DNA of 64,000 nt from Nitrospinota bacterium (lineage in GTDB: Bacteria > Nitrospinota > Nitrospinia > UBA9942). The stretch covers positions 7,855-71,854 of the forward strand of contig JACQBS010000051.1 in NCBI GenBank assembly GCA_016194325.1, in the 5' to 3' direction. Below, piece after piece: positions 10,884 to 51,422 of the stretch. Both the position numbers and the translations under genes were made by a program. The first letter of the stretch is position 1; the number at the start of each line of letters is the position of its first letter. Under the pieces are notes generated by a model, which was not told where the DNA came from, did no database searches, and saw only the letters and a program-made list of their open reading frames with translations.

Positions 10884-10907
10884 ATTAAAAGATTAAGGAA
10901 ATAATGA

Positions 10908-16635: not shown

Positions 16636-16639
16636 ATTT

Positions 16640-17531: not shown

Positions 17532-17536
17532 AATTA

Positions 17537-17643: not shown

Positions 17644-17659
17644 AAGAAAGGGTGAAATT

Positions 17660-19160: not shown

Positions 19161-19168
19161 TAAAACTT

Positions 19169-25100: not shown

Positions 25101-28100
25101 TTAACCTCTCATCTTATACAATAGATGCATGGGTGAAGGTGCCAGATGGCTTGACTACAGGCATTAGACAAATTATCTCACAGGATAATGGAACGAGCTA
25201 CTGGAGGATGAGGCTAAATAATAACACACTTGAGCTTTGTGACAGCAGGCTCACAAGTCCGTGTAATAATACAGCCACAACTATTAATGATGGAGAATGG
25301 CATCATATAGCAGTTGTTCGTGATGATGCATTGGATAAGGTTTTATTTTATATAGATGGTGTGAATATCTGGACAGTCTCATCACTTACAGAAACAGGGA
25401 CACATGCTATAAATGCTAATATTCAAATAGGCAGGAAGTATAATGGCACAGAATATTTTTATGGAATGATAGATGAGGTTGTCCTCTATAACAGGGTGCT
25501 GACAGATGCAGAAATACAGACCAGATACCGTGCCCCTGTAAAATCTGCCTTCACAAGTGATTCATATTTTAGCTCAGGAATAGTCTCAGGGAAAGATAAG
25601 GTTGTTATAAGATTCCATGGAAAGACGAATGTGGCGACGGCAATAGATAGCACTAATATCAATACAATTCTTCCAATAACAGGAAAGACGACAGGATGGG
25701 GAACTGTCCAGGGTGCAGTATGGTCAACATATCCTACTGGTGGAACTATGACAAATAATACACTGACCATAACATTAGGCACAGGGGCAACAATAGCAAA
25801 GGGGGATACAATAACAACAAACGGCACATATATCAAAGATTTATATCTCAATTCCATATCCGATTTAATAACATTGAGCGGAGATTTTAACCTTAATCTG
25901 CCTGAAGGTGCAGGAGCATACTGGAGATTTGATGAGACTACCGGGACTACTGCATCCGACAGTTTCAATGGTAATAGCGGGACACTTATAAATTCCACAT
26001 GGACTACTGGAAAAATCAATAATGCCCTCCAGTTTGGTGGACCCTTGACTTATACTAAACTTTCAGCAGGCACAGCCACTGCCATCAGCACCAGTGCTAA
26101 TTATAGACTGAATGGACCACAAGATGGTCAGGGGAGTACCGTTGGAACTTGCACCTCCACTACCAGTACCTGTTATACCTGGCGTGCTAATACCGCTGTT
26201 AACAATGAGTGGTGGCAGGTAAACTTCGGAAGTTCTCAAACAATTTCAAGGGTAAAAGTGTATGCATATACAACAGGCACAACTGCAACTTATAAAGTGC
26301 AGACATCACCAGATGGCTCAACATGGACAGATAGGGGGAGCACAACAACGAACGGATGGACTACTTTTGATTTCTCTCCGATAACATCGCAATATGTCCG
26401 GGTGTATGAGACCGCTAATGCCGGCGATGGCTTTCTCTATATATCAGAAGTAGAGGTTTATAATGATAATAGTGGTAATAATTATGCTCAAGTCAATAAC
26501 TCCTACTCCCTGAACCCTGAAAGGCTCACAGTAGAGGCGTGGGCAAAGAGTGGTGCAGCTTCATGGAATGTTACTGATGCACTTGTAACTAAGGCTTCTG
26601 CTTACAAACTCTCTACAACTTCCGGTTCCAAAAATATGTCCTTCTACATATATGCAGGCGGGGCATGGCGGGGTCCTGCTACATTTACTGCTGATGGGAG
26701 CTTTGACATCACACAGTGGCACCATTATGCAGGGACCTATGATGGGGCAAATTTAAAAATTTATGTTGATGGTGTGCTTAAGAATACTACTGCCTATACA
26801 GGAGTGATAAATATCACTGATACAACGGGTCTTTACATAGGCAGTGATAATGGAACAACAAACTATTTGAATGCCAATATAGATGAGGTTGCAATTTATA
26901 ACCGTGCATTGACATTAGAAGAGGTGATTGGTCGTTACGGAGATTATAGCCCAATTACAGCCTTTGCAAATGACCCTGCACCTGATGTTTCGGGTATTCA
27001 GGCTGGGGATACAGTTGAAATAAGGTTCCCTGGACCAACAAATGGCGCTTTCATTGATGCAAGTAATATAGATAATTTCCTTACCCTATCAAATACCCAT
27101 TCATGGAAGGATGGGAGTCTTGCAATAGGTAGTGCAGTATGGAGCACAAGGGTATATGAGAATGATACATTGACAATTACATTAAGTGCAACTACAAGTG
27201 CACCTACTGTTGCACCACAGGATACAATCTCAATAGGCGGTGCCGGAGAGATAAATGCGAAATACAGGGCAGCCGCATGGAACCCGAAAATCAGCGGGAC
27301 ATTTGGAGAGCCGTTACCCGGGACACCCGCAGCATTTTGGAAGATGGATGAGAATACCGGCAATATTGCCTTTGACACTGTAGGGACGAATGATGGAACC
27401 CTTTCTGGCACAACTATCCCGGCATGGGGGACAGGCTTCTTCAACTATGGGCTGGACTTTAACAGCAGCACTGCCTATATGAATGTCGGTAGTATAATAT
27501 TAATTGGTGATTGGTCTATAGAGGGATGGTTCAAGTATCCTCTACCTATTGTTACAGGTACATATAATTCTCTTACAGGAGACCGCCGTGTTGTAGTCCA
27601 GAGAACAACAATGAAACTTGGGACATATAATGGTGCATTTGTTGATCTGGATACTCCTTATTTGATGAGTGGACTCGTATCAGGCTGGCATCATATTGCA
27701 GCAGTAGGTGATTCTACTGTTGGTGGATGTTCGCCCTTGCCCGACGGATGTACAAAGTTTTATATTGATAGTGTCCTTGTAGGAACAGCAAATTATAAGA
27801 CCACTGCTGCATTGACGACTATAGGTAATACAACTGCAGGTAATGAGCAGTTCGGTCTTATAGATGAGCTCGCTGTTTACTCAAGCGCCCTCACAGCAGA
27901 TGAGGTAGCCTCCCGCTATCTTGTCTTCTTTAAGGAAATCTATGCAAAAGATACGAGTAATGGTGGTGCTAATGTCCAGAATGGGGACCAGGTCATTGTC
28001 AGATTTGATGGACCTACAGGTGCAACATTTATAGATGGTAATAATATAGCTAATGCCCTGCAGTTATCTGCCGGCAGTTGGGGGACTATAACCTCTGCTA

Positions 28101-36439: not shown

Positions 36440-39400
36440 ATGAACAGAAAAGAAATAGTGTTAGTGAATAGTGTCAGTGTCAGAAAGAAAATGCTTACAC
36501 TTACACTTACACTTACACTTACACTAATGCTTTCAGTTTATGCCTTTCCATGGAGTGAGCCGGTTATTATAGACTCAGGACCTTTCAATGCCTACAGGAC
36601 TGATATTGCATTTGACTCCAGGGGTAATGCCATAAGTGTATTTGAACAGAAGAGTGGTGATTTCTATAGAATATTTGCTAACAGATATGTCAATGGCAAG
36701 GGTTGGCAGGGGACGGTTACAATAGATGCTAATAGCGGTGATGCCTATAGGGCTCAGGTGGCATTAGATAAAGAAGGGAATGCTATGGCAGTATTCAAAC
36801 AAGCAAACAGGGTCTTTGCCAACCGATATATTTATAATGAGGGTTGGCAGGGGACTGTCCCTATTGATAATGGCACAGGTAATGTCGATGGGCAGGATAT
36901 AGTCTTTGACAGTGAGGGGAATGCTGCTGCAGTCTTTGAGGAGTATAATGGTAAGGAATTTGGAATATATGTAAATCTCTATTCTTCTACTGACACTAAT
37001 ACTAACACTGACACTTCTAAAAGTAGCTGGTCTGGGGCTTTCCGGATAGATACTGGTCATGGTAATGCCTTTTTCCCATATCCACTATTTGATGACAAAG
37101 GTAATCTTTATGTAATTTATTATAAGGAAGAGTCCAGTGGGCTGGAGGTTTATGTCAGCCGGTTACAGAAGCCAGAAGTTAGAAGCCAGAAGTTAGAAGC
37201 CAGAAGTCAGAAGATAACTTATGGAAACATAGTACACAAGAAAGAGAAATGGGTTGAAAAGAAAAGTGAAATAGGGAGAGGAATTAAGTCTGTATATAAT
37301 CCCATGTTTTTAAGTGAGCTCAAAAAGAGGATATATTCGGGGAACTACTCCTACTCCCGCTGGGAGACCCCTTCAAAAATAGATTCAAGGTTCAGAGATG
37401 CATACAGACCAACCCTTCTTGCTAATGGGAATGGAGAGGTAACTGCACTATTTGTAAAATGGGATGGCGAATATTTAAGTGGCTATATGGTTAGCCACAG
37501 AAATGGTAAATGGGGCAAAATAGAGGAGATTGATGCAGGGAAGGGTGATGTGGAGCATATAAGAGGTGCAGTAAATTTCAAAGGTGAAATGGCAGTCGTA
37601 TTTACACAGTGGGTGGATGATAAACAAGGGGCAAGGGGCAAGGGGCAAGGGGCAAGGGGTAATGAAAATTTAAGGATACATGCAAGGATATATTCCCCCT
37701 TAACAAAGGGGGATAGGGGGTTGTCTGGCTGGGGGGAGGCTAAAATCATAGACGGAGGTAAAAAAGATGCCTACAATCCAAGTATTATATTTACCAATAG
37801 TGGTGAAATTATTGCTGTCTGGTGTCAGTGGGAGAAAGCGAATGTTAAGTCATATACAAATATTTACAGAAATGGAATAGGGTGGGGAAATGCAGAACGG
37901 CTTGAGAATAAAGAGGGTGAGACCTGTGGTGTAAGGATTGCATCAGGATCGGATGGTAAGGTCATTGCTATATTTGAGCAGGATGGTGTTAATTCAGAAG
38001 CCAGAAGCCAGAAGATAGAAGTAGTAGCCGTTTCTGACGGCGATAAAGCAAGAAGCCTGCCCCTGCATGATGTAAGCAGGGGAATAAACAGGATATTTGC
38101 AGTGGAATTTAAAAACACTGACACTGTCACTAACACGGACACTTATACCGTAAGAAAGCTTACCAGTGGAGATAGGGAGGATTATTATGCGGAGTTCAGT
38201 CCTGATGGAAAAATGATTGTCTTTGTTTCAAAACATGGAAAATATTCTAATCTCTATATTATGGATGCGGATGGAAAGAACATGAGACAATTAACTTCCG
38301 GTGATGTAACTGATACAGCCCCTGTTTTTACACCTGATGGAGGAAAGATTATCTTTGCCTCAAACAGGATTGCTGAAGGATGGGATATCTGGTCTGTCCG
38401 CCCCGATGGCTCTGAGCTTACCCGTATTACAAAATGGAGCAGAAACGAATACTCTCCACATCCCACATCTGATGGTAAAGGTGTGCTCTATGTCTCTACT
38501 GCAGGTGGTGACCATGCCATCTGGAGTATGGATATAAATGGAGATAATCCGAGACGATTAACCTCAGGAGGAACAGGTGATTGGTTCCCTGCAATGAATC
38601 CGAATGGTAGAGAAATTGTCTTTGTAAGCACGAGGCTGGGATATGGCGATATATGGACGATAGATCCGGTGGAAAAGAAATATCATAGATTGACCTATTC
38701 TGACCTGCCAGAGTTTTCACCGGCATGGAGCCCTGATGGCTCAAAGATTGCCTATGTGACTAACAAAGGTGGGGAATTTGATATCTGGATTATGGATAGA
38801 GACGGAAAAAATAAGAAGAGGCTGACAAAAGGGATATCAGATAGAAATTGGGGAAATAGGTTCTCGGCGATTAAGATAATGGAGACCGCCGGGTATTATC
38901 ATCTCTCATGGCATCCTGACGGGACAAAAATCCTTTTTACAGAATGGGGGGATAATGAAAAAGAGAGCTGCATTTCAATACTTGATTTTGATAAGGCTAT
39001 TATAGATAGATTGGAAGCAGATGGAACATCTATCCCAGAGTATACCTTGATTGGAGAGGGGGAACTGACAAAAGGCGAATGGGAGGATTTTGCTCCCTCA
39101 TTTAGTCCTGATGGTATATCCCTCACCTTTTCATCCAACAGGAGCGGTAACTGGAATATATGGAGTATGGAATTTAATGGAGAAAACTTAAGGCAGCTTA
39201 CGGATGAGAAGGCTGATGCTCTTGCCCCTGTCTTCAGTCCCGACGGCAAAGAAATAGCCTTTTTGAGAAGCCAGAAGCCAGAAGTCAGAAGCCAGAAGGA
39301 TGAAACAAATTTTGAAAATCGTCAATCTTCAATCGTCAATCTTCAATATGATTTGTGGCTAATGAAAAGTGATGGGAGTGGTGCGAGGCAGGTTACAAAA

Positions 39401-39985
39401 GATATTCAGGTTATATCTTATCCTGCATGGAATCCGAATGGTAAAGAAATAGCCTTTGTCGCTCAAGGGAAGGATGTTCCTGAAATATGGACATACAACT
39501 TTGAAAACTCTAAAGTGCGAAGACTTATCACGGCTTACAACTCACAACTCAAGACTCAAGATTCATTAAGCTATCCCTTCATAAAGTTCTTGTATCGTAT
39601 AGGGTATAATCCTGCTGGTGATAAAATTACCTTTGAATCTAATCGTTCAGGAAATGTAGAGATATGGACAATGAGGAGTGATGGGACTAATCTTGCCCGT
39701 ATTACAAATGGGGATAGTCCGCACTGGAATCCTATCTGGAGTCCTGATGGGAAGATGATAGCCTATACAACCGATAAGTTAGGGGAAAAAGCAGGACATC
39801 ATAACTGGCGTAATTACAATATTTGGGTAGCTGATCCAGAGACACATGAAGAGATGCTCATTACAGGTGAAGAGCAGATAGACTGGAATCCTGTATGGAG
39901 CCCCGATGGTAAAAAAATCGTCTATGTTACAAACCGTTCAGGTGATTTTAAACATTTCAACCTGTGGGTGCTGTATTTGAAGTGA
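36440..39985 (+). CDS. Secreted two-part beta-propeller protein: novel N-terminal repeat region + TolB-like PD40 repeats; carries at least 10 repeat-derived in-frame segments
   Basis: The leader is MNRKEIVLVNSVSVRKKMLTLTLTLTLTLMLSVYA. The N-terminal half has ~45-aa repeats (W.G...ID.G...AY....A.D..GNA.AVF.Q......IFANRY). The C-terminal half has PD40 blades (FSPDGK.I.F.S...G..NIW.M..DG.N.RQLT). The conserved tail is NRSGDFKHFNLWVLYLK. Confidence 0.8.
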   Translation: MNRKEIVLVNSVSVRKKMLTLTLTLTLTLMLSVYAFPWSEPVIIDSGPFNAYRTDIAFDSRGNAISVFEQKSGDFYRIFANRYVNGKGWQGTVTIDANSGDAYRAQVALDKEGNAMAVFKQANRVFANRYIYNEGWQGTVPIDNGTGNVDGQDIVFDSEGNAAAVFEEYNGKEFGIYVNLYSSTDTNTNTDTSKSSWSGAFRIDTGHGNAFFPYPLFDDKGNLYVIYYKEESSGLEVYVSRLQKPEVRSQKLEARSQKITYGNIVHKKEKWVEKKSEIGRGIKSVYNPMFLSELKKRIYSGNYSYSRWETPSKIDSRFRDAYRPTLLANGNGEVTALFVKWDGEYLSGYMVSHRNGKWGKIEEIDAGKGDVEHIRGAVNFKGEMAVVFTQWVDDKQGARGKGQGARGNENLRIHARIYSPLTKGDRGLSGWGEAKIIDGGKKDAYNPSIIFTNSGEIIAVWCQWEKANVKSYTNIYRNGIGWGNAERLENKEGETCGVRIASGSDGKVIAIFEQDGVNSEARSQKIEVVAVSDGDKARSLPLHDVSRGINRIFAVEFKNTDTVTNTDTYTVRKLTSGDREDYYAEFSPDGKMIVFVSKHGKYSNLYIMDADGKNMRQLTSGDVTDTAPVFTPDGGKIIFASNRIAEGWDIWSVRPDGSELTRITKWSRNEYSPHPTSDGKGVLYVSTAGGDHAIWSMDINGDNPRRLTSGGTGDWFPAMNPNGREIVFVSTRLGYGDIWTIDPVEKKYHRLTYSDLPEFSPAWSPDGSKIAYVTNKGGEFDIWIMDRDGKNKKRLTKGISDRNWGNRFSAIKIMETAGYYHLSWHPDGTKILFTEWGDNEKESCISILDFDKAIIDRLEADGTSIPEYTLIGEGELTKGEWEDFAPSFSPDGISLTFSSNRSGNWNIWSMEFNGENLRQLTDEKADALAPVFSPDGKEIAFLRSQKPEVRSQKDETNFENRQSSIVNLQYDLWLMKSDGSGARQVTKDIQVISYPAWNPNGKEIAFVAQGKDVPEIWTYNFENSKVRRLITAYNSQLKTQDSLSYPFIKFLYRIGYNPAGDKITFESNRSGNVEIWTMRSDGTNLARITNGDSPHWNPIWSPDGKMIAYTTDKLGEKAGHHNWRNYNIWVADPETHEEMLITGEEQIDWNPVWSPDGKKIVYVTNRSGDFKHFNLWVLYLK
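37166..37214 (+). repeat. In-frame (YAGAAGN)7 heptamer tandem repeat
   Basis: cagaagc cagaagt tagaagc cagaagt tagaagc cagaagt cagaaga encodes QKPEVRSQKLEARSQK. Related blocks lie at 37995..38022, 39265..39299, 46664..46691 and 60542..60569. Confidence 0.9.
37625..37659 (+). repeat. In-frame perfect (CAAGGGG)5 heptamer tandem repeat
   Basis: caagggg x5 (35 nt, not a multiple of 3) encodes QGARGKGQGARG within the TolB-like 1 CDS. Confidence 0.95.
39265..39344 (+). repeat. In-frame composite repeat (SAGAAGY)5 + (AATCKTC)4 at the variable loop of TolB-like paralogue 1
   Basis: gagaagc cagaagc cagaagt cagaagc cagaagg ... aatcgtc aatcttc aatcgtc aatcttc encodes RSQKPEVRSQKDETNFENRQSSIVNLQ. Confidence 0.9.
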
Positions 39986-39990
39986 TAATT

Positions 39991-40073
39991 AGTGCAGAGT
40001 ATCAAAGTATCAAAGAGTCAAAGTATCATAGATTAAAGACTTTGACACTCTGACACTTTGACACTTTGACTCT
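39991..40073 (+). repeat. Intergenic octamer-unit hairpin (AGTCAAAG/CTTTGACA) between TolB-like genes 1 and 2
   Basis: Left arm agtgcagagtatcaaagtatcaaagagtcaaagtatca; 9-nt loop; right arm gactttgacactctgacactttgacactttgactct. It starts 6 nt after stop 39985 and ends 16 nt before ATG 40089. No T-tract. Confidence 0.85.
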
Positions 40074-40088: not shown

Positions 40089-42122
40089 ATGAATATAAAA
40101 AAACTGACACTCACACTCACACTGACACTCACACTCACACTGACACTCACACTGGCATATGCGCAGGAGCTTCCCTATACTGTCAGGAATATTACCGATG
40201 GAGAGAGAATAGATTTTCATCCGGAATTCAGCCCTGATGGGAATGAGCTCGTATTTGCCTCTAAAACAGAGATAAGCGAAGATGATAAAAAGAAAGAGTT
40301 TTGGGGTACCAGTCCCTATTATGTGAACTTATGGCTCATGAACTCAGACGGAAGGAACAAACGGCAGTTGACCACTGATAAAGCAATAGATTGTTATCCA
40401 TCGTTTACCACTGATGGAGAAAAGGTTCTTTTTGTCTCCAACAGGGGTGGGCAGTGGGATATCTGGTCTATAAAAAAAGATGGCTCAGGACTTACCCGTC
40501 TTACAAATAATACTGATAAAGATTACTCGCCAAAGGTAACACCGGATGGTAAACATATTCTATTCTTCAGCACACCAACATCAAGTGAAGTTGGTTATAT
40601 TACAGAAAGTGTATGGATTATGGATATGGATGGAAAGAATGCAAAGAGATTGACCTCCGGAGGCAAGGGGGATTGGTATCCCTCTATGAACCCTGATGGT
40701 AAGGAAATTATATTTGCAAGCATGCGGCTTATAGGTGGCAGTCTCTGGACAATAGATAGGGAAGGAAAGAATTACAGGAGATTGACCTATGGAAAGGTGC
40801 TGGAGTTTTTTCCCAACTGGAGTCCTGATGGGGAAAAAATCGCCTATGTTTCAAGAAGGGAGCATGCCTCCTTTGATACTGTAGGCGATACCGAGAAAGA
40901 CCCGCTTGAAATCTGGATTATGGACAGAGACGGAAATAATAAAAGGCAATTAACAAAAAATATATCAGGGGGTATATGGGATTCAAGATTCAACTTAAGA
41001 AAACCCCTTGATTTTATCAGTTATTATCATTTGTCATGGCACCCTGACGGCACAAAGATTGCTCTTACTACATGGGATAGAGGACAAAAGGGTAGCTATA
41101 TCAGTGTAATTGAGTTCGGCAGAGATACTTTAAATAAATTGCCTGCCTTAAAAAACGATACACTTCCTCAATATACTTTGATTGGAGAAAGGGAGCTTAC
41201 TGCCGGTGAGTGGGAGGATTTCGGTCCCTCCTTCAGTCCTGATGGTAATACGATAGCCTTTTCATCAAACAGGTCGGGTAATTGGGATATCTGGAGTATA
41301 GGGGCTGATGGTGAGGGAGTGAAGCAACTTACAAAAAATCCATCCACAGAAATTGCCCCTGTCTTCAGTCCTGATGGTAAAGAGATAGCCTACCTCAAAG
41401 AGGCAAATCCAAAATCCGAAATCAGAAATCCGAAATATAATATGTGGATAATGAAAAGCAACGGGGAGGAGGCACGAGAGGTTACAGGAGCGATTCCTGT
41501 TCTATCTTATCCTGCATGGCATCCTGCTGGTAATGAGATTGCCTTTATATCAAAAGGGGATGAGGGAATTGGAATATGGGTTTACAATGTCATTCAACAA
41601 AAGAGCAAAAAGGTAGCTACTATATGGAATAGCGAAAGAGAACAAGAGGCAAGAATACGTGCAGGGGAGGCTTTAGCCTCCCAAAGAGGCAAAAGGTATT
41701 ATCCCTTTAATGAGCTATTCCTCTACCGAATAGATTATAATAATAAAGGAGATAAAATTACCTTTGAGTCAAATCTTTCTGGTAATGTAGAAATATGGGT
41801 AATGAACAGTGATGGAAGGGATATGAGTAAGGTTACAACAGGGAGTAGTCCGCACTGGAATCCTGTATGGAGTCCTGATGGAAATAGAATAGCTTATGCA
41901 ACAGAGAAACTTGCTTCAAACTTAGGGCCTCCTTTTTGGCCAGATAATAATTATAATATCTGGCTGGCTGATATGAGTACAGGAAAAGAAGAGGCACTTA
42001 CAGCAGAGGAGCAAACCGATTGGAATCCTGCATGGAGCCCGGACGGAAAAAGAATCGCATATGTAACCAACAGGTCAGGTGATTTTAAACATTTCAGTAT
42101 ATGGCTGTTGTATTTGAAATAG
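40089..42122 (+). CDS. Secreted TolB-like PD40 beta-propeller repeat protein (about 12 blades)
   Basis: The signal peptide MNIKKLTLTLTLTLTLTLTLTLAYA is encoded by (CTGACACTCACACTCACA)3. It has about 12 blades with FSPDG/WSPDG...I.F.SNRSG.WDIW. The tail is NRSGDFKHFSIWLLYLK. Confidence 0.85.
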   Translation: MNIKKLTLTLTLTLTLTLTLTLAYAQELPYTVRNITDGERIDFHPEFSPDGNELVFASKTEISEDDKKKEFWGTSPYYVNLWLMNSDGRNKRQLTTDKAIDCYPSFTTDGEKVLFVSNRGGQWDIWSIKKDGSGLTRLTNNTDKDYSPKVTPDGKHILFFSTPTSSEVGYITESVWIMDMDGKNAKRLTSGGKGDWYPSMNPDGKEIIFASMRLIGGSLWTIDREGKNYRRLTYGKVLEFFPNWSPDGEKIAYVSRREHASFDTVGDTEKDPLEIWIMDRDGNNKRQLTKNISGGIWDSRFNLRKPLDFISYYHLSWHPDGTKIALTTWDRGQKGSYISVIEFGRDTLNKLPALKNDTLPQYTLIGERELTAGEWEDFGPSFSPDGNTIAFSSNRSGNWDIWSIGADGEGVKQLTKNPSTEIAPVFSPDGKEIAYLKEANPKSEIRNPKYNMWIMKSNGEEAREVTGAIPVLSYPAWHPAGNEIAFISKGDEGIGIWVYNVIQQKSKKVATIWNSEREQEARIRAGEALASQRGKRYYPFNELFLYRIDYNNKGDKITFESNLSGNVEIWVMNSDGRDMSKVTTGSSPHWNPVWSPDGNRIAYATEKLASNLGPPFWPDNNYNIWLADMSTGKEEALTAEEQTDWNPAWSPDGKRIAYVTNRSGDFKHFSIWLLYLK

Positions 42123-42135: not shown

Positions 42136-44403
42136 ATGAACAGAAAAAAAATAGTGTCAGTGAACAGTGTCAGTGTCAGTAAAAAAAACAGTGTTAGCAA
42201 AAGGATACTAATACTGATACTAATACTGACACTAACACTGACACTTGAAGATGCCTTTGCGGACTCAAAGGGGAGACCCGACCACATGTCAAAGGAGATA
42301 ATAAAGACTAAAGAAGTAGTCCCTGTTCCTCCCGATATTCAGGTGCCTTACTCGGTCAAGAGGATTAGTGACGGCAGTTCCATTGATTACCATCCGGAGT
42401 TTAGCCATGATGGAAAACAGATTGTATTTATTAGAAAAATAGATAATGATGAAAATATGAAAAAGGGGGAATTCTGGCACAAGACACCTTATTCCCTGAA
42501 TCTATGGCTCATGGATTCAGATGGCAATAACAGAAGACAGTTAACATCAGGGGATGTGATGGACTTTGCTCCAAGGTTTACACCTGATGGAAAAAGGGTC
42601 ATTTTTGTCTCCAATCGCAGGGATGGCAGATGGGATATATGGTCAATAGATATTGATGGTTCAAACCTTAACAGAATTACAGAGACAGAAGGGAATACAG
42701 GGCTATGGGAAAGGTCACACTATCCTTTCCCTACGCCAGATGGTAAGGAGATGATTTTCGTAATCTATAAAAAATCCCACGGAAGTGTATGGCTTATGGA
42801 TATGAAAAGCAGAAATATAAGAAGAATAACTTCAGGGGGATTTGGAGATGACTTTCCGATGATGTCCCCTGATGGTAAAGAGATTGTCTTCAAAAGCACG
42901 AGACAGGGAAATGGAGATGTATGGTCAATAGATAGAACAGGAAAAAATTACAAAAGATTGACCTATGAGGATTACCCGGAATTTTACCCTGCATGGAGTC
43001 CGGATGGGACTAAAATATCCTATGTCACCAACAAAGGGGGTATCTTTGATATATGGATAATGAATAGGGATGGTAAACACAAAAAGAAGCTGACAAAATT
43101 CCTCTCGCAGGGGGCATGGGGAAAAAGGTTTGATTATAACGACCTTGTAGAGACCGGATATTATCATGTCTCATGGCATCCGGATGGAACAAAGCTTGCC
43201 CTGACCATCTGGGATCCTGATAAAAAAGAAAGTTATTTGACAACACTCGACTTTGGAAAGGATATTGGCAGGGTAATGGATAGCCTGCCTGATGAAAAGG
43301 AGACCCTTCCTGATTACACCCTTATTGGAGAGAAAGATATTACCGGCGGTGGAAGCTGGGATGATTTTGGACCATCTTTCAGCCCCGATGGAAAAACAAT
43401 AGCCTTTGCTTCTAATAGAAAGGGGAACTGGGATATCTGGAGTATCAGCGCAGAGGGTGAGGGATTGAAACAGATGACGGAGGACACTGGTAGTGAGCTT
43501 GCCCCCGTATTCAGTCCTGATGGTAAAGAGATAGCATTTTTAAAAGAAATTGGACAGGATATACAGGATGGACAGGAAAAAAATATAAATCCAGTAAATC
43601 CTGTTAATCCTGTCAAAAAATACTATTCATTATGGCTCATGAATAGTGATGGGAGTGGTGCAAGGCAGATTACTGAGGGTATTAAGGCTATATCTTATCC
43701 TGCATGGAATCCAGATAGTAAAGAGATTGCCTTTGTAGCAAAAGGAGATAAAGGTCCTGAGATACAATTAATCCCCCTTAATAAAGGGGGGCAGGAGGTT
43801 GTTACTGTGAGCCGTGTTATTTCTATATGGGACACAGAGAAGCCTAATCCTTCTATGTTTCCTTTTGCAAAGGATACAAAGGATGAGGAGTTTACTCCTG
43901 AGGAAATGGCAAAGATGAAAAAACTATTCCCGAATGCAAAAGTCGGGATGGGTGGATTGACCCCCTTTACAAAGGGTGAAACCATAGATGTTCCTTATCC
44001 ATTGAAAGAGTTTCTCTACCGTGTAGATTATAATGCCGCAGGTGACAAAATCATATTTGAGTCTAATAAAAGCGGGAATATAGATATATGGTCGGTAAAA
44101 AAAGATGGGACAGAGATGACTCGTATTACAAAAGAAAGTGGACCGCATCTAAATCCTGTCTTTAGCCCTGATAATAAAAGAATCGCCTATGCCCGCAGAA
44201 AATTGGAGTTAAGCTCATATAATGAAGTAAATTATAACATCTGGGTTGCCGATGCGCATACCGGTGAAGAAATGCCTATTAACGGTGAGGAGCAGACAGA
44301 CTGGAATCCTGCATGGAGTCCGGATGGAAAAAAAATCGCCTATGTTACTAATCGTTCAGGGGAATTTAAGCATTATAATATATGGATGCTGTATTTAAAA
44401 TAG
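42136..44403 (+). CDS. Secreted TolB-like PD40 beta-propeller repeat protein
   Basis: The leader is MNRKKIVSVNSVSVSKKNSVSKRILILILILTLTLTLEDAFA, followed by PD40 blades throughout. The tail is NRSGEFKHYNIWMLYLK. Confidence 0.85.
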   Translation: MNRKKIVSVNSVSVSKKNSVSKRILILILILTLTLTLEDAFADSKGRPDHMSKEIIKTKEVVPVPPDIQVPYSVKRISDGSSIDYHPEFSHDGKQIVFIRKIDNDENMKKGEFWHKTPYSLNLWLMDSDGNNRRQLTSGDVMDFAPRFTPDGKRVIFVSNRRDGRWDIWSIDIDGSNLNRITETEGNTGLWERSHYPFPTPDGKEMIFVIYKKSHGSVWLMDMKSRNIRRITSGGFGDDFPMMSPDGKEIVFKSTRQGNGDVWSIDRTGKNYKRLTYEDYPEFYPAWSPDGTKISYVTNKGGIFDIWIMNRDGKHKKKLTKFLSQGAWGKRFDYNDLVETGYYHVSWHPDGTKLALTIWDPDKKESYLTTLDFGKDIGRVMDSLPDEKETLPDYTLIGEKDITGGGSWDDFGPSFSPDGKTIAFASNRKGNWDIWSISAEGEGLKQMTEDTGSELAPVFSPDGKEIAFLKEIGQDIQDGQEKNINPVNPVNPVKKYYSLWLMNSDGSGARQITEGIKAISYPAWNPDSKEIAFVAKGDKGPEIQLIPLNKGGQEVVTVSRVISIWDTEKPNPSMFPFAKDTKDEEFTPEEMAKMKKLFPNAKVGMGGLTPFTKGETIDVPYPLKEFLYRVDYNAAGDKIIFESNKSGNIDIWSVKKDGTEMTRITKESGPHLNPVFSPDNKRIAYARRKLELSSYNEVNYNIWVADAHTGEEMPINGEEQTDWNPAWSPDGKKIAYVTNRSGEFKHYNIWMLYLK
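43552..43615 (+). repeat. Complete hairpin element inserted in frame in TolB-like paralogue 3 (GGACAGGAT / AATCCTGT units)
   Basis: Sequence: ggacaggatatacaggatggacagga-aaaaaatat-aaatccagtaaatcctgttaatcctgtc. The arms are reverse-complementary. It encodes GQDIQDGQEKNINPVNPVNPV at the same loop that carries other repeats in the three paralogues. Confidence 0.9.
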
Positions 44404-44473: not shown

Positions 44474-46636
44474 ATGAATAGAAAAAAAATAGTGAGGGGG
44501 TTAGTCCCCCTTAATAAAGGGGGATTGAGGGGGTTGTTGATTTCACTTACACTTTCACTTACACTTACACATGCACTTGCACAGGAGCTTCCATATACTG
44601 TCACTGATATCACTAATGGAGATACTGTAGATTTTCACCCTGAGTTCAGTCCGGATGGGAAGTATATTGTTTTTTCCTCCATGGCAGTGGACGGCAGCTA
44701 TTTCACTGATATGCACTTATGGATTATGGATGCTGATGGAAAGAACAGGCGGCGGATAACATCAAAGAGTGCGATGTATCTTCAGCCGACCTTCACTCCT
44801 GATGGGGAAAGGATTGTTTTTATTTCCAATATAGAGGGCGGCTCATGGGATATCTGGTCAATTAAAATTAACGGTTCAGGGCTTACTCGCCTGACGAGAG
44901 ATAATCAGAAAGAATACTTCCCTATTGTAACATCCGATAGTAAAAGTCTTGTTTTTATAAGAAGATATGGTGGAACAGACAGCGTGTGGACCATGGATAT
45001 TGATGGAAACAACATGAGGAGATTGAGTTCCGGAGGGAATGGAGACTCCTTTCCGGCGATTTGCCATGATGGAAAGGAGATTATTTTTTCTACCACTCGG
45101 CTTGGTAACAGCAATCTCTGGACGATAGACAGAGAAGGGAAAGAGTATAAGAGACTTACCTTTGAAGATACAATAGAGTTTTCACCCTCATGCAGCCCAG
45201 ATGGAGCTAAGATTGCTTATGTTGCTATAGAGGGAGGGGCAAAGACTTACAGTAAGGCACGGAAGGGGTTTGAGTTCAAAGAGATATCCTACAGGGAAAG
45301 GTCCTTTGATATATGGCTAATCAACAGAGATGGAAGTGGCAGAAGGCAGATTGCCAGAAATATATTTGAGGTAGGTCCAGGTATGAAGCTATTCAAGTCT
45401 GTAGATATTATAGAAGGAATCAACTACTACCACATCTCATGGCATCCCAGTGGTAAGAAGATTGCGTTGACCAGGTGGAATAAGGATAGACCGGGGAGTC
45501 GTATTAGCACTCTTGAATTTGATATGGACATTATTGAGAGACTGCCGGTTACAGAAACACCCGTTCCAGAGTATTCACTGCTCAGGGAAAAAGACCTCAC
45601 CGGTGGAAGTTGGGATGACCTTGCCCCGAGCTTTGCCCCTGATGGCAAAAGCATAGCCTTTGCCTCCAACAGGAGCGGCAACTGGGATATATGGAGACTT
45701 AGGATTGCGGATTGCGGATTGCGGATTGCGGATTGCAAATCAGAGTTTGATGATGCAAAGCTGGAACAGCTTACAAAAGGGGATGACTATGAGTTAGCAC
45801 CTGCATACAGCCCGGATGGGAAAGAGATAGCATTTTTGAGAAGACAGAAGCCTGCCCTGAGCAGAGCCGAAGGGACAGAAGACAGACTTCAATACGATAT
45901 ATGGCTCATGAATAGTGATGGGAGCAACGCAAGGCAAATTACAAAAGGTGTACCTGTTCTTTCCTATCCTGCATGGAATCCTGATGGGAAAGAGATTGTT
46001 TTTATATCGGAAGGGAATGGATATGCTCCAGAGATATGGGGATACAGCATCGCTGAAAGCAGCCTTAAAAAGATTACGGTCATAAAGGATGCTTCTGTCC
46101 TCGCCTCCAGATTAAACTTGTCCCCGCAAGCTTTAAGCGGGGATAATAAAACGAAGATTGGCCTCATCGCCGACCAGCGATATCCGGATGCCTCCAATCC
46201 TCTATCAATCGGTGCAGGCGGTATTTATCCTTATAATGAATTCCTTTATCGTATAAATTATAGCCCTCGCGGTGACAGAATCATCTTTGAATTGGATAGA
46301 AATGGCAGTGTAGGTATCTGGAATGTCAATAGTGATGGCAATAGTCTCGCCCGTGTTCTGACAGATGATTTACTCCGCTGGACTCCGACATTCAGTCCTG
46401 ACGGCAGAAAGATAGCCTATTCTAAAAAGGCTGATAAACAGTTTGCCCCGATATACTGGACAGATTACAATATCTGGATAACCGATGCTGAGAGCGGTGA
46501 AGAGATGAGGATTAACGGTGAAGAACAGATAGACTGGTTTCCCTCATGGAGTCCAGATGGAAGAAAAATCGCCTATGTTACTAATCGCTCAGGAGATTTT
46601 AAGCATTTTAATATATGGCTGCTGTATTTGAAATAG
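44474..46636 (+). CDS. Secreted TolB-like PD40 beta-propeller repeat protein
   Basis: The leader MNRKKIVRGLVPLNKGGLRGLLISLTLSLTLTHALA contains the G5/C5 palindrome element. PD40 blades follow. The tail is NRSGDFKHFNIWLLYLK. Confidence 0.85.
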   Translation: MNRKKIVRGLVPLNKGGLRGLLISLTLSLTLTHALAQELPYTVTDITNGDTVDFHPEFSPDGKYIVFSSMAVDGSYFTDMHLWIMDADGKNRRRITSKSAMYLQPTFTPDGERIVFISNIEGGSWDIWSIKINGSGLTRLTRDNQKEYFPIVTSDSKSLVFIRRYGGTDSVWTMDIDGNNMRRLSSGGNGDSFPAICHDGKEIIFSTTRLGNSNLWTIDREGKEYKRLTFEDTIEFSPSCSPDGAKIAYVAIEGGAKTYSKARKGFEFKEISYRERSFDIWLINRDGSGRRQIARNIFEVGPGMKLFKSVDIIEGINYYHISWHPSGKKIALTRWNKDRPGSRISTLEFDMDIIERLPVTETPVPEYSLLREKDLTGGSWDDLAPSFAPDGKSIAFASNRSGNWDIWRLRIADCGLRIADCKSEFDDAKLEQLTKGDDYELAPAYSPDGKEIAFLRRQKPALSRAEGTEDRLQYDIWLMNSDGSNARQITKGVPVLSYPAWNPDGKEIVFISEGNGYAPEIWGYSIAESSLKKITVIKDASVLASRLNLSPQALSGDNKTKIGLIADQRYPDASNPLSIGAGGIYPYNEFLYRINYSPRGDRIIFELDRNGSVGIWNVNSDGNSLARVLTDDLLRWTPTFSPDGRKIAYSKKADKQFAPIYWTDYNIWITDAESGEEMRINGEEQIDWFPSWSPDGRKIAYVTNRSGDFKHFNIWLLYLK
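45702..45736 (+). repeat. In-frame perfect (GGATTGC)5 heptamer tandem repeat
   Basis: ggattgc x5 (35 nt) encodes LRIADCGLRIADC. It replaces the SxxxDGEG turn that is conserved in the other three paralogues (NWDIWSIGADGEGVKQLT). Confidence 0.95.
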
Positions 46637-46649: not shown

Positions 46650-47607
<958 letters not shown>

Positions 47608-47618
<11 letters not shown>

Positions 47619-48510
47619 CAAAAGTGTCAGTGACAGTGTCAGGAAAAAAATACTTACAGTTGTATTGACACTTACACTTACACTACCAATTGTTGTTAAT
47701 GCGGAAGAGGGAAAGGATGCAGAAGCACCTATAGAAATGGTCTTCGTTAAAGGGGGTTGTTTCCAGATGGGTGACCCCTTTGGAGATGGGGAGAATGATG
47801 AAGTGCCAGTCCATGAGGTTTGCGTGAATGATTTTTATATCGGCAAGTATGAAGTGACAGTAGAAGAGTTTGGAAAGTTTGTGAAAGAGACAGGTTACAG
47901 CACTGATGCAGAAAAAATGGGCGGTTGTTTTGGAAAGGTTGGTTACAAGTGGAGAAAAAGAAAGGATTTTAACTGGAGTAAGGTGGATTTCCCTCAGACA
48001 GATAGACACCCCGCAGTTTGTATAAGCTATAATGATGCAAATGAATTTATGAAATGGCTGAATAAAAAATTTGTGGTGAGCAAAACGAATTCATCGGGTG
48101 GTAAATACCGTCTGCCTACAGAGGCTGAATGGGAATATGCAGAGAGGAGCGGCGGTAAGGCGGAAAAATGGGCAGGGACAAATAACGAGTCGGAGGTTTC
48201 GGATTATGTATGGTATGATAAAAATTCCGGAGGTAAAACGCATCCTGTGGGTCAGAAAAAACCCAACGGCTTGGGTTTATACGATATGAGCGGCAATGTA
48301 TGGGAGTGGGTAGAGGATTGGTATGAAGTTGATTATTATGATAAAACTCCTAAAACCAATCCGTTAAATGCGAAGCCCAGCCATGCAAAGTCAATGCGCA
48401 GTGGTCCATGGAGCGTTCCTTTGCATGCAGTAAGGGTCTTTTATCGCGGCAGCGATATACCATATAGTATATGCGACGGACTCGGTTTTCGGGTTGCAAA
48501 GACCCCTTGA
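47608..48510 (+). CDS. Secreted FGE-sulfatase-fold protein (second subfamily)
   Basis: The leader is MQDDKSVSDSVRKKILTVVLTLTLTLPIVVNA. Motifs: MVFVKGGCFQMGD, FYIGKYEVTVEEFGKFVKETGY, HPAVCISYNDANEFMKWLN, YRLPTEAEWEYAERSGG, GLYDMSGNVWEWVEDWY, GFRVAKTP. The start overlaps the upstream stop by 11 nt; the listed ORF start at 47497 is out-of-frame read-through of the upstream gene. Confidence 0.8.
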
Positions 48511-48627
48511 AGGATTATAAAAATAATGGAACACGAATTACACGAAAAAGGTGTCAGTGAACAGTGTCAGTGTCAGAAAAAATACTTACATATTCCCCCC
48601 TTAATAAAGGGGGTGAGGGGGTTGTTA

Positions 48628-49491
48628 ATGAGAAGGGTTGCACTCATACTTACACTCACACTTACACTTATTTCAGATAGTGTAAACGCTAAGGAATGCA
48701 CACTGCTGGAGCCTGAGGCACTGAAAAGGGCTATAGAAAATAAATCTATATATGAGATGATTATATTTGATGTTCGTCCGCGGTATACTCCTGACTCGAA
48801 GCGTAGGTTTGATCTTGAGACTAATGTGAAGCGTATCCCGTCGAGTCTCTGGGCGCCTCTTGAAAAGATTGAACTGGACCTGGTTGGTAAGGTGGAGGAA
48901 CTTATTGATAGGAATGTTATTCTGGTGGGGGAGAATACAGAGTCCGCAGAAAGTGTATGCAGGTTTATGATGAAAAAAGATTATGGAATTCGTAATATAT
49001 ATGTCTTAAAAGGGGGTATGGAGAAATGGGATGGTCCTATTAAAGATGATATTACAAAAGTTGAATGTGCGATGATTACCTCCAGAGAGTTGATGAATAT
49101 GATGAAATCTGGAAAAAATGTTGAGATAGTTGACAAACGTTTAGCAGATGAATATCATGAGGGACATATACCAGGTGCAGTATTACGACCTGGCGAAATG
49201 AGACAGCCTTCACTAAAATATCTTATAACAAAACGGGAATTGCGTATAAAAAGGGCGCGGGAGAATACTATCGTCGTCTATGTGTATGATAATGAAGTTC
49301 AAACCATGCTGGATTGTAAGTATGAAAAATATTTCTCACATCCTGCATGGTATCCTGATGGTAATAATGATAATAAGAAAGCAAAAAAAGATGTTTATGT
49401 GCTTAGAGGCGGAATGAAGGTATGGGAAGGAGAAGTAAAAAAAGATTATCTGGAAATATTGAAAAAGAGAGTTAAGGAGAAACTGAAATGA
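48628..49491 (+). CDS. Secreted tandem rhodanese-homology-domain protein lacking the active-site Cys
   Basis: The signal peptide is MRRVALILTLTLTLISDSVNA. There are two rhodanese-like units: IIFDVRP...ILVGENTESAES...VLKGGMEKW and VEIVDKRLADEYHEGHIPGAV...VVYVYDNEVQT...VLRGGMKVW. The positions of the catalytic C-x5-R loop carry no Cys. The ORF-track start at 48526 translates repeat elements. Confidence 0.7.
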   Translation: MRRVALILTLTLTLISDSVNAKECTLLEPEALKRAIENKSIYEMIIFDVRPRYTPDSKRRFDLETNVKRIPSSLWAPLEKIELDLVGKVEELIDRNVILVGENTESAESVCRFMMKKDYGIRNIYVLKGGMEKWDGPIKDDITKVECAMITSRELMNMMKSGKNVEIVDKRLADEYHEGHIPGAVLRPGEMRQPSLKYLITKRELRIKRARENTIVVYVYDNEVQTMLDCKYEKYFSHPAWYPDGNNDNKKAKKDVYVLRGGMKVWEGEVKKDYLEILKKRVKEKLK

Positions 49492-49494
49492 ATT

Positions 49495-49563
49495 AAGTGT
49501 AAGTGAACAGTGACAGTGTCAGTTAAAGGTCTTTTGCTGACACTAACACTAATCACTGACACT
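49495..49563 (+). repeat. Intergenic heptamer hairpin (GTGTCAG/CTGACAC) between the two rhodanese-like genes
   Basis: Sequence: aagtgtaagtgaacagtgacagtgtcagt-taaaggtcttttg-ctgacactaacactaatcactgacact. It starts 4 nt after stop 49491, and RBS AGGAGG follows at 49570. Confidence 0.85.
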
Positions 49564-49580
49564 TTATTAGGAGGTGCAAT

Positions 49581-50378
49581 ATGAAAAAATTATTATATAT
49601 AATTTCAGCCTTTTTCTTTGTGTCCTTCGTGTTCTTCGTGGTTAATCAGGTTTTTATCCCTTCATCATCGGAGGCATCGGAATGTATCCTTATTGAGCCT
49701 GAAGATATGAAGATGAGATATGAAGATAGAGCAATTCTTTTAAATGATATGTTCATATTTGATGTTCGCCCTTATCTGATAGCCAATAAGGGGAAACGTA
49801 TTCCGATGTCTATGGCTATTACTTATGAGTCTCTTGAAAATGAGCTTACTTATGAGATAGAAGTGTGGAAAGGGAAAGATATCTATCTGGTAGGTGAAGA
49901 TACTGAATCAACAGAGAATTTTTGCAAAGTCATGCTGAAGAAAAATTATCCAATTGATGATATTTATGTTTTAAAGGGCGGAATGAAGTCATGGAATGGA
50001 CCTGTTATTGCGGGGAAGTTTGAGGATGTGATATGTGAAGAGATAGATTTGCAGGATGTATTGAACTTGAAAGATTCGGAAAGAAAAGTTGAATTTGTTG
50101 ATATGCGTTCACTAAAAGATTATGAGAATGGGCATATACCCGGTGCAGTAGGTGAGGGTGCATTCAGCCGGGAAAATCTATGCTTAACAGGTGTATTCTC
50201 AAGGGCGGTACGGGAGGATGGTCTTGTGGTTTTTGTAGGATATACCGAGCCAGAAACTTTGCATAGATGCAGGGTGCTGAAATGGGCAGTTGGATATAAC
50301 AATATGCATGCCCTTAAAGGAAACATGAAGGCATGGAAAGGGTTGCTGGAAAAGGGTAGATTCGCAGGTCGTTATTAA
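49581..50378 (+). CDS. Secreted tandem rhodanese-homology-domain protein lacking the active-site Cys (paralogue)
   Basis: AGGAGG RBS. The signal peptide is MKKLLYIISAFFFVSFVFFVVNQVFIPSSSEA. Motifs: FIFDVRP...IYLVGEDTESTEN...VLKGGMKSW and VEFVDMRSLKDYENGHIPGAV...VVFVGYTEPET...ALKGNMKAW. Confidence 0.7.
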   Translation: MKKLLYIISAFFFVSFVFFVVNQVFIPSSSEASECILIEPEDMKMRYEDRAILLNDMFIFDVRPYLIANKGKRIPMSMAITYESLENELTYEIEVWKGKDIYLVGEDTESTENFCKVMLKKNYPIDDIYVLKGGMKSWNGPVIAGKFEDVICEEIDLQDVLNLKDSERKVEFVDMRSLKDYENGHIPGAVGEGAFSRENLCLTGVFSRAVREDGLVVFVGYTEPETLHRCRVLKWAVGYNNMHALKGNMKAWKGLLEKGRFAGRY

Positions 50379-50440
50379 GAGAGTCAAAGAGAGACTGAAT
50401 TGGTTAAGGTTTTGACTATTTGATATTTATTCTTTCGGCT

Positions 50441-51355: not shown

Positions 51356-51422
51356 GAGTCAAAGAGTTAAAGTGTCAGAGAGTCAGGGCTTTGATACTTT
51401 GATACTCTGATACTTTGACACT
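51355..51422 (+). repeat. Intergenic octamer hairpin (AGTCAAAG/CTTTGATA) downstream of FGE-like gene
   Basis: Sequence: agagtcaaagagttaaagtgtcagagagtcag-gg-ctttgatactttgatactctgatactttgacact. It starts at the stop codon of 50441..51355. Confidence 0.85.

Follow-up and report, generated by a model that had tools for sequence, protein, structure and literature searches.

In-frame repeat cassettes in the loops of a PD40 beta-propeller gene from an uncultured Nitrospinota bacterium

The window described here is a 64,000-nt stretch of DNA (GenBank assembly GCA_016194325.1, contig JACQBS010000051.1, positions 7,855 to 71,854 of the forward strand) from the metagenome-assembled genome (MAG) of a Nitrospinota bacterium; these 64 kb are the portion of the genome at hand. 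One of its genes, called TolB1, encodes a multi-propeller protein of 1181 residues, and its reading frame runs uninterrupted through at least ten segments of repeat-derived DNA. The segments lie in loops of a fold whose core is under purifying selection, differ between lineages, and are replaced wholesale, as cassettes, between near-identical genomes. They are best explained, with a probability of roughly 0.7, as selfish modular repeats resembling the palindromic elements of Rickettsia, which are filtered by selection and turn over by cassette replacement and not by slippage of repeat units.

Repeat-derived segments of the TolB1 gene

The initial annotation had described the open reading frame (ORF) at 36440–39985 as a single coding sequence (CDS) of 1181 codons that stays open despite at least ten repeat-derived segments. 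This is borne out. The nine segments listed at that time are present at the same positions to within 1 nt, and two more are found in the signal peptide, at 36454–36479 and 36494–36525. The features of the gene, some of them detected with Tandem Repeats Finder (TRF), are the following.

36440–39985, +: CDS of TolB1, a PD40 multi-propeller protein of 1181 aa (ORF reading, Pfam, AlphaFold model, Foldseek, NCBI record)
36446–36532, +: repeat hairpin in codons 3–31 (RNA fold -23.9 kcal/mol, z -3.4; TRF)
36454–36479, +: AGTGTC-type arm of the signal-peptide hairpin, read as ..NSVSVRKK
36494–36525, +: (CTTACA)5.3 arm, read as the (LT)n h-region of the signal peptide (TRF)
36989–37016, +: ACTNAY (ACTGAC-type) hexamer array, peptide TDTNTNTDT, aa 184–193, in the turn between two blades (between ..NLYSS and SWSG)
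37166–37214, +: (YAGAAGN)7, peptide QKPEVRSQKLEARSQK, aa 243–259 (orthologue alignment, AlphaFold model)
37625–37659, +: perfect (CAAGGGG)5, peptide QGARGKGQGARG, aa 396–407, within a 15-codon insert in the turn between blade strands C and D
37693–37725, +: G5/C5 palindrome CCCCCTTAACAAAGGGGG (..AGGGGG) plus AGGGGGTTGT, peptide SPLTKGDRGLS, aa 418–429, a partial copy of a nested palindrome of ~46 nt
37995–38083, +: 30-aa loop, aa 518–548, holding the next two features (alignment, fold z)
37995–38022, +: (YAGAAGN)4
38056–38083, +: 27-nt stem-loop CTGCCCCTGC-N9-GCAGGGGA (CCCCTGC-N9-GCAGGGG), z -2.5
38116–38145, +: ACTNAY hexamer array, peptide NTDTVTNTDT, aa 559–569, in the linker from the N-terminal propeller to the PD40 domain
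39265–39344, +: composite cassette (AGAAGCC)4.7 - GGATGAAACAAATTTTGAAAATC - (AATCKTC)4.4, peptide RSQKPEVRSQKDETNFENRQSSIVNLQ, aa 942–969, in a PD40 blade turn
39541–39564, +: (CTCAMRA)3, peptide NSQLKTQDS, aa 1034–1042, in a variable loop

TRF detects 13 arrays in the ORF, compared to a mean of 0.84 and a maximum of 3 in 50 codon shuffles. Two of the 13, at 38528 and 38641 (period 10, two copies), are at chance level. The window contains 98 arrays, whereas 20 dinucleotide shuffles gave 5–16 (about 11). Of these 98, 71 are situated inside mechanically called ORFs and about nine inside the one conserved fold of TolB1. The presence of many sequence families in a single gene, which had also been pointed out, is confirmed by the finding of at least seven families, four of which are also present at other places in the window or at related loci. 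The heptamer arrays of the CDS (at 37166, 37625, 37995, 39266 and 39317) are built of units whose length is not divisible by three, and the (AGAAGCC)4.7 array is 92% regular according to TRF.

A hairpin model for all the segments was rejected, because the heptamer arrays and the composite fold no better than shuffled sequences (z 0 to +1; composite z +1.0). One or at most two of the listed internal segments fold better, the clear case being the stem-loop at 38056 (z -2.5); the G5/C5 region has a z of -0.3. The 5' end of the gene (36446–36532) folds like the intergenic hairpins described below (z -3.4).

The (CAAGGGG)5 array is a canonical G-quadruplex motif, with at least four G4 runs and 3-nt loops. 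The motif is on the sense strand, hence also in the mRNA, and judged from its sequence could slow translation or replication.

Protein fold, position of the segments and selection

The TolB1 ORF is preceded by a strong Shine-Dalgarno sequence, AGGAGG, 7 nt before the ATG. Its product is entered at NCBI as MBI3583170.1, 'PD40 domain-containing protein [Nitrospinota bacterium]', and is predicted from its sequence to be a secreted, signal-peptide-bearing protein having three beta-propellers. The N-terminal propeller (aa ~40–557) is made of 'GNA.AVF' blades with the pattern 'ID.G.GNAYR..FD..GNA.AVFEQ...RIFANRY..GW' and is followed by two PD40 propellers (aa ~565–1181). PD40 repeats (PF07676) are matched over aa ~555–1181 with an E value of 3.5e-71 in at least seven stretches, and these repeated blade motifs place TolB1 in the PD40 propeller family. 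The structural matches found with Foldseek are the propellers of tricorn protease, TolB and LRP6.

TolB consists of an N-terminal alpha/beta domain before one six-bladed propeller, ~430 aa in all. The earlier label "TolB-like" is thus appropriate for the PD40 propellers, but TolB1 is not a true TolB of the Tol-Pal system. The equivalog model TIGR02800 scores 301 bits against a curated cut-off of 343, with the match limited to the propeller part; Pfam finds no N-terminal alpha/beta domain in the protein, and its 1181 residues form three propellers.

The AlphaFold2 model of TolB1 was calculated from a 10-sequence alignment and has a mean predicted local distance difference test score (pLDDT) of 73.8 and a predicted template modeling score (pTM) of 0.52. 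Stretches with a pLDDT below 50 (residues 185–193, 247–250, 395–407, 422–428, 518–547, 560–567, 947–967 and 1032–1044) nearly coincide with the segments, each flanked by confident strands. Such low values are found for 89 of the 119 segment residues, compared to 16.8 expected. Only 18 of the 119 residues are in a strand or helix, compared to 58 expected, and none of 20000 random placements was as extreme. In the model the segments are thus situated in loops and not in core strands, which was the structural check that had been suggested for them. The second half of (YAGAAGN)7 is an exception, being in a predicted strand (E254–258). In the N-terminal propeller the inserts are confined to two kinds of turn, one between FEQ and RIFA and the other between ANRY and GW. 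The segments also exceed the remainder of the protein in hydrophilicity (Kyte-Doolittle -1.34 versus -0.56).

The ratio of nonsynonymous to synonymous substitutions (dN/dS) in the core of the protein is 0.165 relative to the related locus L001 and 0.18 relative to L002, showing that the gene is under purifying selection. It is therefore not the pseudogene that the initial annotation had allowed for, and its synteny is conserved. In the segments dN/dS of the aligned codons is 0.6–1.1, which makes them close to neutral.

Comparison with orthologues

Alignment searches of genomes and metagenomes gave orthologues at only 64–70% identity, and a near-identical genome, described in the next section, was found by a 90%-cluster look-up. 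Ten orthologues align with TolB1 over the full length at 52–78% identity. All nine listed segments fall in indel hot spots of this alignment. At these sites the orthologues have gaps or other repeat peptides, corresponding in the DNA to other repeat families or to none. There are about 23 indel hot spots across 11 orthologues, and the G5/C5 'PL.KGG' element is found at no fewer than eight of them, depending on the lineage. Repeat arrays cover 34–66% of the residues in indel columns but 3–8% of the core residues in the seven orthologues for which DNA is available.

Some orthologues are without the segments. Indel residues are fewest in P0008, which has tight turns at the sites of the window's inserts and whose contig (L012) has 0.79 arrays/kb compared to 1.5–3.9 in the others. 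In the P0008 model the strand order is unchanged; a 2-residue turn occupies the site of the 15-aa insert with (CAAGGGG)5, and a 4-residue turn that of the 25-aa insert formed by the composite.

The occupants of individual sites vary. The array at 36989–37016 is missing in five of nine orthologues, two of which have a G5/C5 element in its place. At the (CAAGGGG)5 site L002 has (GTCACCA)4, L003 a short CAGAGAG stretch and L001 nothing. The site of the G5/C5 palindrome is taken by a different palindromic element in L002 and by a full SV/TD hairpin in P0005. The array at 38116–38145 is a leftover arm of a AGTGTCAA/ACTGAC hairpin, the full form of which is present in L001 and L002 (RVKVSESQSVKVKNTDTDTNT). 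At the (CTCAMRA)3 site L001 reads CTCACGA/CTCATGG. The segments are not all equally old. The 39265–39344 composite is common to three orthologues. (YAGAAGN)7 is common to five and is 49 nt long in all three for which aligned DNA is available, L001 and L004 having the length of the window, while P0006, P0007 and P0009 have other palindromic elements at this site. CAGAAGY repeats occur at five sites of the window and in eight of 11 related loci, AATCKTC in three loci. Unique to the window are (CAAGGGG)5, the G5/C5 copy at 37693–37725 and a 17-codon insert at aa 521–538. Since (CAAGGGG)n was not found in any related locus, it was rejected as a dispersed family.

Replacement of cassettes between near-identical genomes

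The sister genome GCA_016234205.1 is represented by two contigs (L014 and L015), which were reached via the 90%-cluster mate MBI5748635.1 and two further proteins. Outside divergent blocks it is identical to the window in 96.7% of 2889 columns and in 98.8% of 9601 columns. Repeat sites account for 11 of the 12 divergent blocks. The shared region contains 38 of the window's arrays; 21 of these are the same or almost the same in both genomes, 16 have been replaced or are missing, and one has changed in part. Wherever a block has been replaced, the sequences on either side of it still belong to the same paralogue.

The part of TolB1 covered in the sister genome is aa 647–1181, in which all four genuine arrays differ. 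The composite at 39265–39344 is replaced by (AGATGCA)4.5, and the CTCAMRA region is occupied by a longer unrelated insert with small palindromes. The intergenic hairpin at 39998–40070 is absent. TolB1 is followed in tandem by three paralogues having PD40 propellers only, TolB2, TolB3 and TolB4 (at 40089, 42136 and 44474), and the N-termini of these three and of a rhodanese-like ORF are rebuilt in the sister genome from other repeat families. The loop that in TolB1 contains the 39265–39344 composite is occupied in the paralogues as follows.

41405–41436, +: TolB2, (AAATCCG)4.6 read as NPKSEIRNPK; in the sister genome, a (GACAGGATA)/(TAAATCCTG) composite
43553–43613, +: TolB3, (GACAGGATA)2.8 + (TAAATCCTG)3.1 read as GQDIQDGQEKNINPVNPVNPV; in the sister genome, a TolB1-type composite with a nested stem-loop
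45844–45895, +: TolB4, a truncated CAGAAGA composite; in the sister genome, the full composite

The cassette of TolB3 in the window is thus found in TolB2 of the sister genome. The 80-nt composite, including its non-repeated 19-nt spacer, is at least 90% alike in TolB1 of the window, in TolB1 of L004, which is another species, and in TolB3 and TolB4 of the sister genome. In sister TolB3 a copy of the 27-nt stem-loop lies inside a CAGAAGC array, providing a pair of a filled and an empty site; no target-site duplication is seen at this single pair. This nesting suggests that (YAGAAGN)4 and the stem-loop at 38056, which are 33 nt apart in one loop of TolB1, are probably a single composite cassette.

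No change that breaks a frame, whether of copy number or otherwise, was found between the window and the sister genome; (GGATTGC)5 and (CAGAAGA)4.4 do not differ between the two. Metagenome contigs were also searched for exact matches to the flanks of (CAAGGGG)n with 3–7 copies between them, and none was found.

The perfect (GGATTGC)5 array at 45702–45736 in TolB4 encodes the peptide RIADCGLRIADC, which is also present in the more distant P0010. It has been kept perfect over a long divergence, unlike the neighboring arrays.

Repeat families in the window and sorting of reading frames

Intergenic copies of the modules are hairpins whose arms are tandem octamers or decamers. The hairpin following TolB1 is the non-coding counterpart of the coding inserts. 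Coding copies also occur in a gene type unrelated to TolB1, the FGE-sulfatase paralogues, which carry the SV/TD hairpin in frame.

39998–40070, no strand assigned: intergenic hairpin, arms (AGTATCAA)4 and (ACTTTGAC)4, z -4.4
18065–18398, +: FGE-sulfatase-family gene with two AGTGTCAA/ACTGAC hairpin cassettes, read as SVKESESQSVKVKNTDTDTDT (TRF, fold, paralogue alignment)

The second of these two cassettes (18323–18398) is an 18-aa insert relative to two FGE-sulfatase paralogues. Another copy of the 27-nt stem-loop is found in frame in an FGE-like gene at 50895, and a further one at 7570 of L001. The pattern CCCCCTTNNNNAAGGGGG of the G5/C5 palindrome has seven copies in the window against 0.24 expected, all in CDSs and in all three frames; the single copy in frame 0 is a loop variant that avoids TAA.

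The reading frame of the ACTNAY arrays depends on their position in the protein. All 12 N-terminal copies, situated in signal peptides, are read as (LT)n, all 14 internal copies as (TD)n, and none is in the TGA frame, although the copies partly share ancestry and the split for the window alone is seven versus three. Such sorting bears the mark of a filter on insertions that come in without regard to frame.

The signal-peptide cores of at least 12 ORFs are encoded by tandem arrays, mostly (LT)n (at 11477, 17722, 19202, 36494, 40103, 42204, 44541, 46741, 47668, 48641, 60542–60623 and others). In several of these a purine-rich arm encodes the charged n-region and the complementary arm the hydrophobic core. 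The N-terminus at 60527, for example, reads MNRRQKSEVRSQKS followed by FSVLCLLSSVFCLLL and is derived from (CAGAAGT)4.6 + (TGTCCTC)5.6. In the sister genome these genes have N-termini that are likewise made of repeats but are wholly different.

Proposed mechanism

In the explanation that we favor, short modular repeats present throughout the lineage would colonize the signal peptide, the blade turns and the inter-domain linkers of a functional propeller gene. The modules are tandem arrays of 6–10-nt units, hairpins with arms of this kind, and G/C palindromes of 18–46 nt, which combine into cassettes of 25–110 nt. The cassettes may arise or land at many places, and selection would retain those that keep the frame, have no stop codon and encode a peptide suited to its context, hydrophilic peptides surviving in loops and leucine-rich ones in signal-peptide cores. 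Because propeller turns tolerate the cassettes, TolB1 would gather many of them. Most would evolve nearly neutrally, as passengers, until other cassettes replaced them at the same sites.

The replacement probably proceeds through recombination or gene conversion, with dispersed copies and the four tandem paralogues as partners, or else through hairpin-dependent insertion. That cassettes are permuted among paralogues with homologous flanks (..EIAFL.. / ..Y.LW.M..) points to gene conversion for that loop, and the nested stem-loop together with the eight G5/C5 sites points to insertion. Gain or loss of single repeat units appears not to be the route of turnover. The in-register change of the units from AGAAGCC to AGATGCA nevertheless leaves room for contraction and re-expansion. 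The initial annotation's picture of tolerance is correct in that the segments are tolerated, but being static it misses the wholesale replacement of cassettes between near-identical genomes.

Several points weigh against this explanation. The evidence for turnover comes from two MAGs, and assemblers err at repeats. The structural model is based on a shallow alignment of 10 sequences, its pTM is 0.52, and the low pLDDT of the segments stems partly from alignment gaps. Translation of the segments is itself inferred. The array at 37166–37214 is conserved and old, keeps one length across species and lies partly in a predicted strand, so that the status of neutral passenger does not apply to all segments. 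The low array density of the neighboring 5498-aa DUF2341/LamG-repeat ORF (19169–35665) is not accounted for by loop tolerance alone; apart from its (LT)n signal peptide, this ORF has 0.42 arrays/kb, the background level, compared to 3.7/kb in the PD40 gene. Finally, no transposase, REP-associated tyrosine transposase (RAYT) or other recombinase was recognized among the translations of the 31 window ORFs that were read, not all of which were scanned against family models.

A bolder version of this mechanism, which we consider unlikely, is that the lineage possesses an active, sequence-guided exchange of cassettes, hairpin-dependent or by gene conversion, for which short modular repeats would serve as substrates. 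Such a process would alter the loops of secreted propellers and build signal peptides from hairpin arms, the purine-rich arm giving the charged n-region and its complement the hydrophobic core. ORF-containing hairpins, with a GxxExxY nuclease-like or a 23S-intervening-sequence-type four-helix-bundle gene, would then be the autonomous forms, and the short cassettes their ORF-less derivatives.

Alternative explanations

The cassettes might be adaptive, being kept for diversifying exposed loops and N-termini of secreted propeller proteins by dedicated or semi-dedicated exchange among paralogues and dispersed copies, as in antigenic variation by gene conversion. This would agree with the replacement, at 97–99% identity, of all four genuine TolB1 arrays covered and of the homologous loops of TolB2, TolB3 and TolB4, with the apparent permutation of cassettes among these paralogues, with the re-occupation of the same loops by different families in every orthologue, and with the signal peptides of the proteins. 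However, signal peptides, which are cleaved, and intergenic hairpins are replaced equally often, which suggests a mutational process and not selection acting on the mature protein. The two genomes, the only ones compared, have many arrays that are exactly the same, and the segment dN/dS fits neutrality. The adaptive explanation is therefore considered unlikely.

It might also be supposed that TolB1 is a contingency locus, in which slipped-strand gain or loss of single 7-nt units shifts the frame and switches the gene on or off. The unit length and the regularity of (CAAGGGG)5, which is perfect, and of (AGAAGCC)4.7 are in keeping with such a locus, and heptanucleotide tracts drive phase variation in some genes, such as neuO (PMC13001214). 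Nevertheless, no copy-number difference that breaks the frame is seen, the 49-nt length of (YAGAAGN)7 being the same in three species. Arrays such as (GGATTGC)5 and (CAGAAGA)4.4 are unchanged in the sister genome, and those that differ are replaced in frame. The arrays are in the middle of the gene, are also intergenic and present in many other genes, and all orthologues have intact ORFs. A switch of this kind is very improbable.

Still less credible is purely local growth, in which each array would have expanded by slippage from a chance proto-repeat in place, without movement of DNA between sites. The tandem structure itself is what this would produce, and the sister TolB1 array is in register, with the same two changes in every unit (AGAAGCC versus AGATGCA), which fits contraction followed by re-expansion. 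However, the same units, and entire composites with the non-repeated 19-nt spacer, turn up again at sites that are unrelated, in paralogues and in species only 68% identical, and the palindromes, which are not tandem repeats, behave alike.

A decaying pseudogene, or repeats that are assembly artefacts, can be dismissed, for although the window derives from a MAG and short-read assemblies are error-prone at repeats, the ORF is intact with a canonical ribosome-binding site, the core dN/dS and the synteny are those of a functional gene, and independent assemblies of at least ten relatives have like inserts, all in frame, in intact orthologue ORFs.

A diversity-generating retroelement was also considered and rejected. 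The ORF for a four-helix bundle at 18721 has a weak Avd-like match (27 bits, cut-off 80), and the differences between the genomes are cassette swaps and not adenine-specific substitutions. Neither a reverse transcriptase nor a template repeat was recognized in the ORF translations read, not every ORF having been scanned against family models.

Comparison with known repeat systems

Rickettsia palindromic elements (RPEs), reportedly described by Ogata et al. in 2000 and 2002, are palindromes of 100–150 bp that form a few Rickettsia-specific families and whose insertions are mostly old and common to species. The TolB1 segments resemble them most closely in behavior. Both are small selfish repeats dispersed in coding and non-coding DNA, and both occur in frame in functional genes where extra residues are tolerated, leaving the fold undisturbed. 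The segments are nevertheless not RPEs, from which they differ in host, size and form: they come from a Nitrospinota MAG, and at 24–80 nt they are not long hairpins. The modules (24–110 nt) are mostly tandem arrays of 6–10-nt units and represent seven families or more. A single 3.5-kb gene has about nine sites, compared to 85 in-ORF RPEs in the whole genome of R. felis (PMC1166351), and the cassettes are replaced between genomes that are 97–99% identical. The likeness to RPEs drawn in the initial annotation therefore stands for in-frame, tolerated repeats in loops, but not as membership of that group.

The four-times-heptanucleotide elements of Geobacter metallireducens are a single family interpreted as regulatory RNA elements, and their reading frame, protein structure, orthologues and turnover were not analyzed in that report (PMC2700814). 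Short tandemly repeated repetitive sequences (STRRs), the heptamer repeats of cyanobacteria, Xanthomonas and Beggiatoaceae, are lineage-specific, have 2–7 units and hundreds of copies, sometimes form inverted pairs, and in G-rich versions form G-quadruplexes (PMC4692102; PMC4679880), as (CAAGGGG)5 could also do. The tandem heptamers described here likewise have about 3–7 units, and the same unit (CAGAAGY, AATCKTC) is present at many loci of one lineage. STRR heptamers, however, are mainly intergenic and under-represented in coding regions (PMC4692102); one of them, TAACTGA, has stops in all frames of one orientation and within ORFs is found at the periphery (PMC4679880). Here the arrays are deep inside a conserved fold, and most of those in the window are in called ORFs.

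Repetitive extragenic palindromes (REPs) are imperfect palindromes of 20–40 nt with a conserved GTAG or CGTC head (PMC3733652). REPs, bacterial interspersed mosaic elements (BIMEs) and the miniature inverted-repeat transposable elements known as MITEs resemble the present modules in being small dispersed palindromes, and in-frame MITE insertions are known (PMC3733652, PMC10969869, PMC2759123). In the window, pairs of ORF-containing and ORF-less hairpins recall autonomous elements with their MITE derivatives. In aligned copies, however, the heads are AACCCCCT/CCCCCTT and AAGCCTGCCCCTGC, not GTAG or CGTC, and the filled and empty site pair has no terminal inverted repeats with target duplication.

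The phase-variable loci of Haemophilus and Neisseria, and neuO, also have within a CDS tandem units whose length is not divisible by three. Unlike in those loci, close relatives show no frame-switching differences in unit number here, and the arrays are mid-gene and genome-wide. The presence of many families in one fold, the sorting of frames according to context, and the replacement of cassettes between near-identical genomes are new in comparison with all these systems, none of whose reports has them.

Implications

Most of what is known about in-frame selfish repeats comes from Rickettsia, in which the insertions are old and any one gene has few. TolB1 has about nine sites and no fewer than seven families in one conserved fold, and a single DNA unit yields (LT)n or (TD)n depending on context. 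If our explanation is correct, selfish DNA builds and rebuilds protein segments in this uncultured bacterium. The gene would then be a natural experiment on the origin of new protein segments, possibly of secretion signals, from non-coding repeats, on the positions at which a beta-propeller accepts insertions, and on the turnover rate of such segments. A caution of practical value can be added: in these lineages, protein stretches that are rich in indels and of "low complexity" represent repeat DNA, at which assemblies break.

Gene neighborhood and other features of the window

TolB1 belongs to a cluster of multihaem cytochrome, FGE-sulfatase, PD40 and rhodanese genes whose synteny is kept in relatives. 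The conserved neighborhood comprises 1606–18697 and 46650–51355 of the window and is also found in L012, L013 and L015. It includes two very large CxxCH-rich multihaem proteins, several FGE-sulfatase/SUMF1-family proteins, the PD40 paralogues and rhodanese-domain proteins, and extends from Nitrospinota to a MAG labeled Thermodesulfobacteriota.

The Uma2-family endonuclease gene just upstream of TolB1 (35873–36403) is preceded by a repeat hairpin (35695–35828). It is at least 90% identical to copies in Nitrospinae MAGs from the Rifle aquifer, whereas the TolB1 orthologues in related genomes are only 64–70% identical. In L013 part of a 23S-IVS-type gene occupies the slot of the Uma2 gene; this slot appears to be a place where small mobile genes reside.

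Two ORFs are enclosed by repeat arms. The GxxExxY-family ORF at 10908–11336 (TIGR04256, 138 bits) is situated between 28-nt arms of CACAGATAAA-type decamers with 93% complementarity, the left of which includes its start codon. Hairpins of its family without an ORF are found at 5151–5225 and 54095–54169, and the arrangement looks like that of an autonomous element paired with miniature derivatives. The four-helix-bundle ORF at 18696–19168, of the 23S-rRNA-intervening-sequence type (TIGR02436), lies between arms of 45–51 nt made of AGTATCAA/ACTTTGAC octamers that are 78–84% complementary; the ORF-less hairpins of this family are at 39998–40070 and 51354–51422. The Coxiella intervening sequence, in which a hairpin carries an S23p ORF, has the same layout (PMC4990558), but the element in the window is intergenic.

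Three-part composites of the form (CACAGAGA)3 - (CGGTTTAAA)3-5 - (TCTCTGTG)3 occur at 1721–1815 and 17539–17641. They are hairpins in which both the stem and the loop are tandem arrays, and they are located in the 5' parts of mechanically called ORFs, with peptides such as TEAQRTRRHR..SGLNSLNGLI..LCLSVSV.

A stem-loop CCCCTGA..TCAGGGG is found at 51571–51588 in the N-terminal region of a WD40-repeat protein (ORF 51446–53947), and at this place the sister genome has a second in-frame stem-loop, of 27 nt. Within the ORF there are also about 12 WD40 units, each of 126 nt, which resemble one another at 72%.

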